Shown: piece by piece, positions 38,095 through 41,024 of the stretch | Numbering within the stretch: position 1 is the first letter of the stretch | Layout: each line of letters starts with the position of its first letter | Assembly: GCF_054482525.1 (NCBI RefSeq) | Contig: NZ_CM137006.1 | Length of the DNA: 64,000 nucleotides | Direction: 5' to 3' (one strand) | Translations under genes and position numbers: made by a program | The notes under the pieces: generated by a model | What the model was told of the DNA's origin: nothing | Databases searched by the model: none | What the model saw: the letters and a program-made list of their open reading frames with translations, nothing else

Positions 38095-38112
38095 ATATTG
38101 CCGGATAAATTA

Positions 38113-38150
38113 AACGCCTCTGTCAGAAATGATGGGGGCGTTTTTATTTT
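38113..38150 (+). terminator. Weak hairpin plus T-run after cysH
   Basis: aaacgcc...ggcgttttt attttg; short stem with a large loop, so not a strong terminator. Confidence 0.35.
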
Positions 38151-38358
38151 GCGAGCAGCATTCCGGCATTTAAAGGTGAACATCGCAGGGAGAATTAACA
38201 GGTATAGAATGGAGTTGGGTGCTTGAGGCTGTCTGGCGTTAAGCATTCGCGAGGTTCCAGATGGACAAAAGCCCCAGGCGATATTTCTATCAACCTGAGG
38301 CCAGCGTTCGAACCTAAGCAATTCGAATGTTAGTCTCTTCTTTGCAGGGAGGCAAGAC

Positions 38359-38511
38359 ATGCTGACAAAATATGCCCTTGTGGCAATCATCGTACTGTGT
38401 TGTACAGTACTGGGATTCACGCTGATGGTAGGCGACTCGTTGTGTGAGTTGAGTATCAGAGAACGTGGTATGGAGTTTAGGGCAGTTCTCGCTTACGAAT
38501 CGAAGAAGTAG
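38359..38511 (+). CDS. Hok/Gef-family membrane toxin (type I toxin-antitoxin; hokX/sokX-type locus at the cysH-iap position)
   Basis: 50-aa [53 protein letters not shown]: N-terminal TM segment, conserved DSLCE and AYES motifs, closest to HokE as I recall it; putative mRNA 5' end gggtgcttgaggct near 38217. Confidence 0.8.
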
Positions 38512-38532
38512 CCACCACGCGGGGGTAAAACC

Positions 38533-39871
38533 CATAAGCGCTAACTTAAGGGTTGAACCATCTGAAGAATGCGACGCCTCGGTGCCTCGTTAAGACGATG
38601 CCTCGCGTTCTTCAATTGCGTTTTGTAGGCTGTCAGGGATACTGTCCCACGAATGGCCACCTGTAAGCTCCAGATGACCATTTTTGTTATTCTCCACAAC
38701 GAGTTAGTTCTTCTTTTCGGATCCGGCACTTCTGGGGGGGAAATCCAGCGATGGCTGGATTATGTCGTCAATTAAAAATGCGGCGAGTAGATTAGCAAAT
38801 ATCCACGCTTTCGCGAGTTCAGGTTCCTTTGCACGCAAAGCATCCAGGTGCAGCAAACTTTTGAGCCGCTTAAAAGCCAGTTCAATTTGCCATCGCAGAC
38901 GGTAACAATCAGCCACTTGCTCTGCTGAATATTCATCTTCCGGTAATGATGTTAGCAATAGCACATGGCCCGCTGCTTCCAGCGTTTCCGCCTGAACTAC
39001 TCGTCCTTTTCGACGATTCTCGCTGAGCAGTCGGGTTTTACTGATTAATGCTTTTTCGGGAGGAAGTGATACGGCAATGAGACGTGCCGGAAAGGGAGCT
39101 CCGGCTTTTTTATTACCTGAATTGCCTATCATTACAGTGGTTTCACCGTTCTTACCGCAATCCAGCCCGCGCAGAAAACCCATCATGTCAAAGCGCATTC
39201 CTTCTGCAGTTAACCAGCGCAATCCTCGCCAGTGAACCCGGACGATATAATCAGCTTCTCCAAAAGCAAGTGAGCGGATACATTCGGGACGCGAACCGAA
39301 TCCCCGGTCAGCAATGCGTATCTCGTCTGCCGTTTGCGCAAATCGGTCCAGCCGTTCAGCGTCTCTGCTGTCGGTTAGCTCAAAATCAGTGAACTGACAG
39401 GTATGAGGATCATATCCCATATGTAGTCGCCATTCAGCGCTGCCGCCCCCGGGCGCACTGATTGCTGTTCCATCGACAAGACGCAATCTCTTTCCGCTTG
39501 TACAACCCGTAACTGCGGCGCGTACAGCAAGTGTTTGTGCGGCAAGTATGCCAAACCAGTCGGCGGCATTCCGCAGCCGCTTCAGGAGAGCCACGTCAGA
39601 TAATGTTGCAACGTCATGGAGCTGAGCCCATGCAGTGACTTCACGTAATGACATCCCCCCGGGGCCGTAAGCCAGCCCCAGACGTAGCAGAGTTGCAGCA
39701 TCACGAATTTCGCGGCGGCGGGTTAGAGCCCCGGCATTACGTGCCGAAGTATCCAGTTCTTCGGGCTTACCAATATGGGCCAGAATTGCTGACCAGTTAT
39801 CGTGAGAGTAATTCATCGGCACGTTAAATCATATCAGGCGTAATACCACAACCCTTAAGTTAGCGCTTATG
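38533..39871 (-). mobile_element. IS186 (IS4 family) insertion sequence, about 1339 bp, flanked by a 10-bp target-site duplication gggtaaaacc
   Basis: Terminal inverted repeats cataagcgctaacttaagggttg (left) and caacccttaagttagcgcttatg (right); direct repeat gggtaaaacc on both flanks; target is the palindrome cgcgggggtaaaaccccgcg. Confidence 0.9.
38704..39816 (-). CDS. insL: IS186 transposase InsL
   Basis: ORF MNYSHDNWSAILAHIGKPEELDTSARNAGALTRRREIRDAATLLRLGLAYGPGGMSLREV... (370 aa from the MNYSHD start). Confidence 0.9.
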   Translation of the reverse strand: MNYSHDNWSAILAHIGKPEELDTSARNAGALTRRREIRDAATLLRLGLAYGPGGMSLREVTAWAQLHDVATLSDVALLKRLRNAADWFGILAAQTLAVRAAVTGCTSGKRLRLVDGTAISAPGGGSAEWRLHMGYDPHTCQFTDFELTDSRDAERLDRFAQTADEIRIADRGFGSRPECIRSLAFGEADYIVRVHWRGLRWLTAEGMRFDMMGFLRGLDCGKNGETTVMIGNSGNKKAGAPFPARLIAVSLPPEKALISKTRLLSENRRKGRVVQAETLEAAGHVLLLTSLPEDEYSAEQVADCYRLRWQIELAFKRLKSLLHLDALRAKEPELAKAWIFANLLAAFLIDDIIQPSLDFPPRSAGSEKKN

Positions 39872-39986
39872 GGGTAAAACCCCGCGTATTGAATTGTTAA
39901 AGTTTGGCCTCCTGCACCCCTTTTTTATACTCTGTTTCTGGTGGCATTGATTTCCTGCAGGCAAGGGAGTAATCATTTCAAACCCA

Positions 39987-41024
39987 TCAAGACGCCTTCG
40001 CCAGCTCCTTCACCAGCGGTAGCATTATCCGCATAACGTCACGGCAGCGACGTTCTATTCTTCCAGGAAGTGCCTTATCAATATGTTGTTGATTATCCAG
40101 TCTTACGTCATGCCAGCTATTTCCCGCAGGGAATGCAGCTGTTTTTGCGCGTTGCTGATAACCATCCTTATTCCCAAGATTCCAATTTGTTGCTTCTACC
40201 GAAAGTACGGCAATACCGGCTTTGTCGAAAACTTCGGCGTCATTACAACAGCCAGTACCCTTCGGATAATTTTTATTCAAACCCGGATTGATCGTTGCGG
40301 CAATTCCATGACTACGCGCAATTGCCAGTGCCCTGTCGCGCGTTAATTTCCTTACTGCTTCAGGGGTTTTTACACCACTGTTGAAATACAATTTATCGCC
40401 AACAATTAAGTTATCGAGATTAATCACCAGCAGCGTATTTTTCTTTTCGGTGTCACTCATCCGCTTGAGTAAATTCTCAGCACCTAATTTCCCTTCCTCT
40501 TCACCACTGGTCGCCACAAATCGAATACCATACTCGGTAGGCGTATTTTTCAGGCGTTCTGCCAGTTCCAGCATGACACCTAAACCTGCGGCATTATCAT
40601 CCATTCCTTGTAACGTCAGCCCGCCGAGATTGGCATCGGCGTCAGCATCGCTCAGCGGGGCGTAAGTATCCAGATGCGCCATAATGATGATCTGCTGCGG
40701 CGCTTTGCCTTCATGAGCGGCAATCACCGTACTTCCCGTCACGTTATGCCAGCTCTTGCGATTATCGCGGGCGGTATAAATATACCGACTATTAAATGTC
40801 CGAATATCACTGCGATAACCCATTTGCTGAAACTGTTGGCGAATATAATCGGCAGATAACATTTCTGCAGGAGTTCCGGTCATGCGTCCCGGAAAGAAAG
40901 TAGCAATATGTCGTGCCTGGGTATTAGCAAAATCGCCAGGTTTAGGTGACGAGGCGTGTACGGGGAGAATAAAGCATACGCCGAGCGCCAGGGCAGCGGT
41001 ACGGTGGCGCAATGCGGAAAACAT
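39987..41024 (-). CDS. iap: Alkaline phosphatase isozyme conversion aminopeptidase Iap
   Basis: 345-aa ORF MFSALRHRTAALALGVCFILPVHASSPKPGDFANTQARHIATFFPGRMTG... Confidence 0.88.
   Translation of the reverse strand: MFSALRHRTAALALGVCFILPVHASSPKPGDFANTQARHIATFFPGRMTGTPAEMLSADYIRQQFQQMGYRSDIRTFNSRYIYTARDNRKSWHNVTGSTVIAAHEGKAPQQIIIMAHLDTYAPLSDADADANLGGLTLQGMDDNAAGLGVMLELAERLKNTPTEYGIRFVATSGEEEGKLGAENLLKRMSDTEKKNTLLVINLDNLIVGDKLYFNSGVKTPEAVRKLTRDRALAIARSHGIAATINPGLNKNYPKGTGCCNDAEVFDKAGIAVLSVEATNWNLGNKDGYQQRAKTAAFPAGNSWHDVRLDNQQHIDKALPGRIERRCRDVMRIMLPLVKELAKAS

Follow-up and report, generated by a model that had tools for sequence, protein, structure and literature searches.

IS186 in the post-stop hairpin of the chromosomal hokX toxin gene of Escherichia coli

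In the stretch of E. coli DNA analyzed here (64,000 nucleotides, in the following called the window), a gene for a Hok-type toxin is located downstream of cysH, and a complete copy of IS186 lies in the hairpin that follows its stop codon. This raises the question of how the element came to this position and what the insertion means for the toxin mRNA. The best explanation, which we hold to be highly probable, is that IS186 hit its target site in the stem-loop of hokX and that the hok transcript was thereby cut off from the hairpin and from the fold-back (fbi) element behind it.

The genes in the window are arranged in the order cysJ/cysI/cysH, a short intergenic unit, iap (on the minus strand) and cysD. 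Since the strain carries no type I-E CRISPR-Cas cassette, the hokX locus directly abuts iap. The following features were assigned:

38112 to 38143, plus strand: terminator-like hairpin and T-run after cysH, separating cysH from the hok unit
38205 to 38210, plus strand: putative -10 hexamer TAGAAT of the hok promoter, 6 nt 5′ of the inferred +1, read from the sequence
38217 to 38230, plus strand: putative 5′ end of the hok mRNA with the tac element GGGTGCTTGAGGCT, to which position 1 of the Rfam model RF01794 aligns
38217 to 38374, plus strand: structured hok leader with metastable 5′ hairpin, Sok target and Shine-Dalgarno region (RF01794)
38261 to 38319, minus strand: SokX antisense RNA gene, by homology to the annotated K-12 sokX (b4701)
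38327 to 38355, minus strand: putative sokX promoter with -10 TAACAT (38332-38327), a 17-nt spacer and -35 TTGCCT (38355-38350), likewise read
38327 to 38365, plus strand: 12-codon upstream ORF (ATG...TGA) from three-frame translation, ending 4 nt past the hok ATG (ACATGCTGA)
38348 to 38352, plus strand: hok Shine-Dalgarno sequence GGAGG
38359 to 38511, plus strand: hok (hokX) toxin ORF, 50 amino acids, by Pfam match and identity to HokE
38518 to 38532, plus strand: left half of the split post-stop hairpin, CGCGGGG-GTAAAA-CC
38533 to 39871, minus strand: IS186 (IS4 family), 1339 bp, with perfect terminal inverted repeats of 23 bp
38704 to 39816, minus strand: IS186 transposase ORF, antisense to hok (NCBIfam NF033592)
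39872 to 39886, plus strand: right copy of the target duplication (39872-39881) and right hairpin arm CCCCGCG
39906 to 39926, plus strand: fbi-like 3′ element GGCCTCCTGCACCCC with a stretch of six thymidines (TTTTTT), complementary to nucleotides 1-14 of the mRNA

A weak match to the ctRNA_p42d family at 38110-38152 was discarded, as its 24.9 bits are below the Rfam gathering score of 50 and the match corresponds to the terminator hairpin of cysH.

Judged by homology, the cysH-linked unit is a chromosomal type I toxin-antitoxin locus, hokX/sokX, consisting of a HokE-like paralogue and a standard IS186. In most E. coli, hokX/sokX is located just 3′ of cysH. The combination of hokX and IS186 is a known locus in a common configuration which has already been described, and the preliminary description of this DNA is correct but concerns an ordinary case. 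The literature contains the locus name hokX/sokX, the IS186 hot spot and, for hokX of E. coli B, the inactivation by insertion sequences. A hok/sokX module beside cysH was reported for 90% of urological strains (PMC12736100), and a hok sok system together with IS186 at the GC-rich boundary of IG2 and IG3 was named among the building blocks of the CRISPR-I locus arrangements (Almendros et al., 2014; PMC3903273). The same authors termed sites like the IG2-IG3 boundary IS hot spots. A preprint on Hok diversity (bioRxiv 10.1101/2025.08.07.668861) contains no mention of IS186, cysH or fbi.

The ORF of 50 codons, which had been proposed as a Hok/Gef toxin gene from its sequence, encodes a member of this family according to the Pfam profile HOK_GEF (PF01848; E = 1.1e-9), with residues 5-46 aligned to positions 1-42 of the 42 model positions. 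The protein is identical to K-12 HokE in 39 of 50 residues (78%) and contains the DSLCE motif. It is not HokA itself, since it scores 52.8 bits against the NCBIfam HokA equivalog with a cutoff of 89; the other NCBIfam Hok models also remain below their naming cutoffs. In related genomes, the ORF is labeled "Hok/Gef family protein" by PGAP.

The 158-nt leader matches the Rfam family RF01794 ("sok") on the hok-sense strand and over the full model (positions 1-157), with 111.7 bits at a gathering score of 59 (E = 1e-25). The match begins exactly at the mRNA 5′ element that had been suggested at 38217. Its tac element is invariant across all aligned alleles, and the 5′ end of K-12 hokC carries the same motif. 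The -10 hexamer of hok was missed by a consensus promoter scan because the -35 region is weak.

On the opposite strand, the 59-nt sokX of K-12 aligns antisense to hok at 38261-38317 (score 55). This cis-antisense Sok RNA has a candidate promoter as well as a candidate terminator. The spacing of the putative promoter predicts a +1 at 38319, which is the 5′ end of K-12 sokX, and the predicted terminator consists of the hairpin GCCTCAGG...CCTGGGGC followed by TTTT. The putative -35 region of sokX overlaps the Shine-Dalgarno sequence of hok.

No canonical long mok frame overlapping hok was found in the three-frame translation of the locus in the window. The 12-codon upstream ORF is a putative non-canonical "mok". 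It is kept in all aligned alleles, and hokE possesses an in-frame extension of 12 codons at the same place.

The prevalence of the locus was analyzed by junction queries in a set of 5,426 complete E. coli genomes. At least 4,142 of these have leader, ORF and left hairpin arm in one uninterrupted stretch, with an identity of 94-100%, and most hok-bearing genomes are free of an insertion sequence at hokX. In K-12-like strains the hok ORF is lost and only the leader/sokX part is kept, the homology stopping at the hok ATG.

These data bear on the possibility that hokX had already been non-functional when IS186 arrived and that the insertion had no phenotypic effect. The locus has just the 12-codon ORF in place of a canonical mok frame over hok, in K-12-type strains sokX is all that remains here, the hok ORF being entirely lost, and work cited in PMC7232551 describes the hok loci on the K-12 chromosome as inactive, all of which would suit such an early loss. 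It is nevertheless unlikely, considering that ORF, leader, hairpin and fbi are contiguous in the at least 4,142 genomes mentioned above, that tac does not vary and the single change in fbi preserves the pairing, and that the arrangement with the upstream ORF is conserved and resembles hokE.

The inserted element is a complete IS186 which shows no mismatch to the K-12 copies IS186A and IS186B (100% identity over 1339 bp), and its transposase reaches 133 bits against NCBIfam NF033592 (IS4 transposase; cutoff 115). As described before, it begins 21 bp past the hok stop codon inside the loop of a palindrome and is flanked by a 10-bp target duplication, GGGTAAAACC, at 38523-38532 and 39872-39881. 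A repeat search extends this duplication to 12 nt (GGGGTAAAACCC), as the element's own terminal C and G are ambiguous. When IS186 and one repeat copy are removed in silico, the hairpin CGCGGGG-GTAAAA-CCCCGCG is restored at a distance of 7 nt from the hok stop codon. This IS-free reconstruction of 547 bp is 100% identical to the allele of E. coli PCN033, in which cysH, hok and iap are adjacent.

The restored site GGGG-GTAAAA-CCCC is an exact IS186 target of the type GGGG(N6)CCCC, and the 10-bp duplication accompanies it. IS186 is directed to GGGG(N6/N7)CCCC sites, which are hit repeatedly and in either orientation (Lee et al., 2016; PMC5009759). Such sites are rare, with 19 N6 sites in K-12 (PMC5009759). 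In the 64-kb window, no intact GGGG(N6)CCCC motif is present at a chance expectation of 0.72, because the one at hokX was split by IS186.

The post-stop hairpins of the hok paralogues were compared with the occurrence of IS186 in them:

hokX (window): CGCGGGG-GTAAAA-CCCCGCG, IS186 present
hokC: GGCGGGG-AGTGAT-CCCCGCC, IS186 present in K-12, in the same orientation as in the window
hokE: TGCGGGG-AGTAAT-CCCCGCA, IS186 present in K-12, in the opposite orientation
hokB: GGGG-ATTTT-CCCC (N5 loop), no IS186 in K-12
hokA: GGG/CCC stem, no IS186 in K-12
hokD: imperfect hairpin, no IS186 in K-12

The statement that hok loci of K-12 carry insertion sequences placed in the same way proved right, as IS186 is found in hokC and hokE at the same nucleotide position of the homologous hairpins and with a 10-bp duplication, which was checked on the K-12 sequence. 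Each of the three E. coli hok loci with an exact GGGG(N6)CCCC hairpin harbors IS186 at the same base in numerous genomes, and the hok loci with near-miss hairpins have none there in K-12. In the comparison within K-12, IS186 is confined to hok loci with the exact motif; the target of a transposon is here tied to a functional RNA structure.

At hokX, IS186 is estimated to be present in about 617 genomes in the orientation of the window and in about 166 in the opposite one (about 780 of 5,426), with E. coli B among them. For hokE, about 1,790 genomes were counted, of which about 1,564 have IS186 oriented as in K-12 and about 222 have it reversed. The uncorrected junction counts of 839 and 1,728 genomes were rejected as inflated by hokE-IS186 junctions, which also covered the hokX query because hokE is about 88% identical; these cross-matches were removed by means of identity bands and a listing of the match spread. 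Both orientations of IS186 at hokX are seen in the cas3-bearing strains Ecol_545 and WCHEC005784, with identical duplications. The exact arrangement of the window (IS186, fbi, iap) occurs in only one other complete genome, ETEC1738, which has a different upstream allele.

The recurrence at hokX, hokC and hokE can be ascribed to the target specificity of IS186 acting on a conserved hok RNA structure. Of the two possibilities named in the preliminary description, a recurrent domestication of hok or a plain preference of IS186 for the hairpin, the latter has held up: the exact target (PMC5009759) and the use of both orientations make target-site preference enough to explain the recurrence, and domestication is not needed. 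Selection for the insertion, by which removal of fbi and hairpin would disarm a costly toxin so that IS186 alleles rise repeatedly, appears quite improbable. It could draw on the heavy occupation of three paralogous loci, with hokC also commonly hit besides hokX and hokE, and on the existence of several IS-bearing haplotypes in both orientations (98.3-99.7% identity for a 300-bp junction query, half of which is IS186). Furthermore, insertions of IS150 beside hok/sok loci recur in experimental evolution (PMC5419217), and Lee et al. explicitly posed the question whether IS186 target sites are selected (PMC5009759). However, GGGG(N6)CCCC sites are hit often under near-neutral mutation accumulation, with up to 16 independent hits per site (PMC5009759), and therefore the recurrence needs no selection. 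Clonal inheritance inflates the genome counts, which do not represent events, the Hok ORF is intact in the IS-bearing alleles, and the majority of hok-bearing genomes have remained IS-free.

Downstream of IS186, a complement of the mRNA 5′ end with a T-run behind it is present as the preliminary description had supposed, but it was placed about 10 nt off, at about 39916-39940 instead of 39906-39926. Nucleotides 1-14 of the predicted mRNA can pair with GGCCUCCUGCACCC in 12 of 14 positions (11 Watson-Crick pairs and one G-U pair), leaving an internal loop of 2 nt. The energy of the tac-fbi duplex is predicted as -24.1 kcal/mol, compared to -13.7 ± 2.4 kcal/mol for 1000 dinucleotide-shuffled versions of the 3′ region (60 nt), of which one reached the observed value. 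The 3′ element is hence a complement of the 5′ tac, and it is now cut off from hok by IS186.

Folding of the IS-free transcript, which had been proposed as a further check, gave a divided answer. When the full-length transcript is forced into the tac-fbi pairing, its energy is -126.8 kcal/mol versus -127.1 kcal/mol for the minimum free energy (MFE) structure, so that the fold-back is predicted to be competitive (within 0.3 kcal/mol, iso-energetic) but not the optimum. The MFE structure itself does not contain the tac-fbi helix; in it the 5′ end folds locally (nt 1-32) and the 3′ element lies on the Shine-Dalgarno region of hok. When the 3′ element is present, the Shine-Dalgarno sequence is unpaired with a predicted probability of 0.22; omission of the element raises this value to 0.41-0.51. 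In direction, these predictions agree with a loss of silencing.

The MFE structure leads to another interpretation, namely that the 3′ element acts on hok chiefly as an anti-Shine-Dalgarno silencer, with GGCCUCCUGC pairing to GCAGGGAGGC just 5′ of the hok AUG. The presence of this pairing in the MFE, its duplex energy of -20.9 kcal/mol and the change in Shine-Dalgarno accessibility are in its favor. The conserved part of the 3′ element, however, is GCACCC, the complement of the 5′ GGGUGC. GCACC(C) ends 34 nt past the hairpin in the window, 34 nt in hokC and 33 nt in hokE, and GCACCC is also located about 30-34 nt past the hairpin in hokB, hokA and hokD, which makes six hok loci of K-12 and the window in all. 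The anti-Shine-Dalgarno part (CCUCC), on the other hand, is not conserved in hokC, hokE, hokA, hokB and hokD, and its duplex is weaker than that of tac and fbi. Among the E. coli alleles no covariation of tac and fbi was found: tac is invariant and the sole change in fbi is a C to T in cas-bearing strains, which results in a G-U pair and suits both pairings. Altogether, the comparison of the paralogous sequences favors the fold-back pairing, and we give an anti-Shine-Dalgarno element as the main silencer little credence.

The homology between cas-bearing and cas-less strains ends directly after the T-run (query position 484, corresponding to 39927 in the window), which fits the end of the hok unit. 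A local intrinsic terminator hairpin was sought before the T-run at 39921-39926 and none was found.

For the favored explanation, an IS186 hit in the hokX stem-loop, the following course of events can be proposed. The IS-free ancestor would have produced a transcript of about 360 nt starting at 38217 and comprising the Sok target, the hok ORF and a GC-rich stem-loop 7 nt past the stop codon. Behind the stem-loop, a tail of 40 nt would have followed, the last 15 nt of which before the T-run may have paired with the 5′ end in the tac-fbi fold-back. IS186 would then have transposed into the GGGG-GTAAAA-CCCC stem-loop and duplicated 10 bp. Transcripts of hok would now enter IS186 antisense to the transposase gene and probably terminate inside the element, and with such an end they would possess neither the processing-stop hairpin, which would otherwise stop 3′ trimming, nor fbi. 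By analogy to hok of plasmid R1 and to hokC/gef of K-12, this mRNA would not be able to accumulate as a stable, translationally silent pool. Since it would stay in the open, SokX-binding form, the locus would presumably remain transcribed and antisense-controlled, without delayed killing of the post-segregational type. A new 3′ end of the transcript and the loss of fold-back inhibition can soundly be inferred, in line with reports on gef/hokC (PMC3562002) and with the predicted folding.

It is very doubtful that the post-stop stem-loop of hok is maintained as a landing pad for IS186, whereby the insertion would be a favored recurrent switch from a killing-competent to a harmless, Sok-controlled locus and IS186 would gain safe harbors; were it so, there would be a reason why the hok paralogues account for a considerable part of the few GGGG(N6)CCCC sites of E. 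coli.

The main value of the analysis lies in the correct annotation of the locus as hokX/sokX carrying IS186, in a strain without the type I-E CRISPR-Cas cassette. In addition, natural pairs of IS-free and IS-bearing alleles, e.g., those of PCN033 and the strain of the window, are suited for studying the 3′ end of a chromosomal hok gene.

The arrangement corresponds to the cas-less arrangement B with IS186 at the IG2-IG3 boundary (Almendros et al., 2014; PMC3903273). Other hot spots of IS186, such as the lon promoter of E. coli B and the sites listed in PMC5009759, show the same palindromic GC flanks around a 6-nt core and insertions in either orientation. In contrast to these, the target in hokX doubles as a functional stem-loop in the mRNA of a toxin, and it recurs across several paralogous loci.

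The closest parallels are hokC (gef)/sokC with IS186A and hokE/sokE with IS186B in K-12, in which the same post-stop hairpin with a 7-bp stem and a 6-nt loop was hit as in the window. Both were described by Pedersen and Gerdes (1999), as cited in PMC7232551, and are also treated in PMC3562002. They are other paralogues at other chromosomal sites, HokE being 78% identical to the Hok protein of the window and HokC being distant, and hokC has a long in-frame mokC whereas the locus in the window has no such frame. For gef/hokC in K-12, IS186 is thought to disrupt fbi and the processing of the mRNA, which is still made, ends inside IS186 and stays antisense-regulated (PMC3562002).

With the hok/sok system of plasmid R1, which mediates post-segregational killing, the locus shares the Hok/Gef toxin, the RF01794 leader, the cis-antisense Sok RNA, the pairing of the 5′ and 3′ ends and a 3′ tail that extends about 40 nt past the GC hairpin. 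It differs in being chromosomal and in lacking both a canonical mok and a local terminator hairpin after fbi.

Finally, E. coli B REL606 carries the same ORF, leader and SokX at the same chromosomal position, and its left hok-IS186 junction and the orientation of the element are identical to those in the window. In E. coli B, however, the far side of IS186 is joined to a CRISPR remnant, with loss of fbi and the cas genes, and the leader is interrupted by an IS150. The window, which is free of CRISPR-Cas, has by contrast retained both copies of the target duplication and an intact fbi.

The 3′ element located beyond IS186 (39906-39920) is complementary to the 5′ end of the hok mRNA (-24.1 kcal/mol), and it is also complementary to the hok Shine-Dalgarno region at 38343-38353 (-20.9 kcal/mol). 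The pairing with the Shine-Dalgarno region is the one present in the MFE structure. No local hairpin was found upstream of the T-run which follows the 3′ element, and therefore only long-range stems abut this T-run.

A short upstream ORF is located at the start of hok:

38327-38365, 12-codon upstream ORF, whose TGA stop codon overlaps the hok start (ACATGCTGA)

The equivalent ATG of hokE is in frame with hok and leads to a 12-codon extension, whereas the ORF in the window stops at the TGA. This arrangement is kept in every allele aligned, and the ORF may be a short coupling ORF which substitutes for a canonical mok.

Two structures inside IS186, both antisense to its transposase, are candidate ends of hok read-through transcripts:

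38563-38614, + strand, 19-nt imperfect inverted repeat with a T-rich stretch after it, close to the hok-facing end of IS186
39086-39105, + strand, terminator-like hairpin with T6, deeper inside IS186

Furthermore, the window contains a CsrB gene, which is an ordinary neighbour without relation to the hok-IS186 finding:

2632-2991, + strand, CsrB small RNA (Rfam RF00018, 382.9 bits)

A comparison of the hok promoter region (38165-38215) with the loci L007, L008 and L009 revealed two allele classes, which differ at several positions immediately 5′ of the tac element, itself invariant. The window and the IS-free allele of E. coli PCN033 fall into one class. ETEC1738, the sole genome matching the IS186-fbi-iap arrangement of the window, belongs to the other class, which implies recombination or an independent insertion.

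IS186 was also found in hok hairpins of other sequences. Plasmid NZ_CP100960.1 (L011, 1666-3177) carries a HokC-like gene, annotated as hokD, with IS186 in the post-stop GGCGGGG hairpin. The flanking 10-mers are unlike each other (GGATTACTCC and GGAGAGATCC), which suggests that IS186 copies in two hok hairpins have recombined. In E. coli B REL606 (L010, 2562-5831), hokX lies between an IS150 in the Sok region of its leader and an IS186 in the hairpin. At its distal end this IS186 abuts a CRISPR remnant (flank GGGTTTTTCC), a junction that fits a deletion of the cas genes and fbi via recombination between two IS186 copies.

In the cysH to iap region (38095-39990), the strain has neither the type I-E CRISPR-Cas cassette nor a CRISPR array between cysH/hok and iap, which corresponds to arrangement B (Almendros 2014). 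In K-12 this interval is occupied by cas3 through the CRISPR array, and a deletion starting exactly at the hok ATG has removed the hok ORF.
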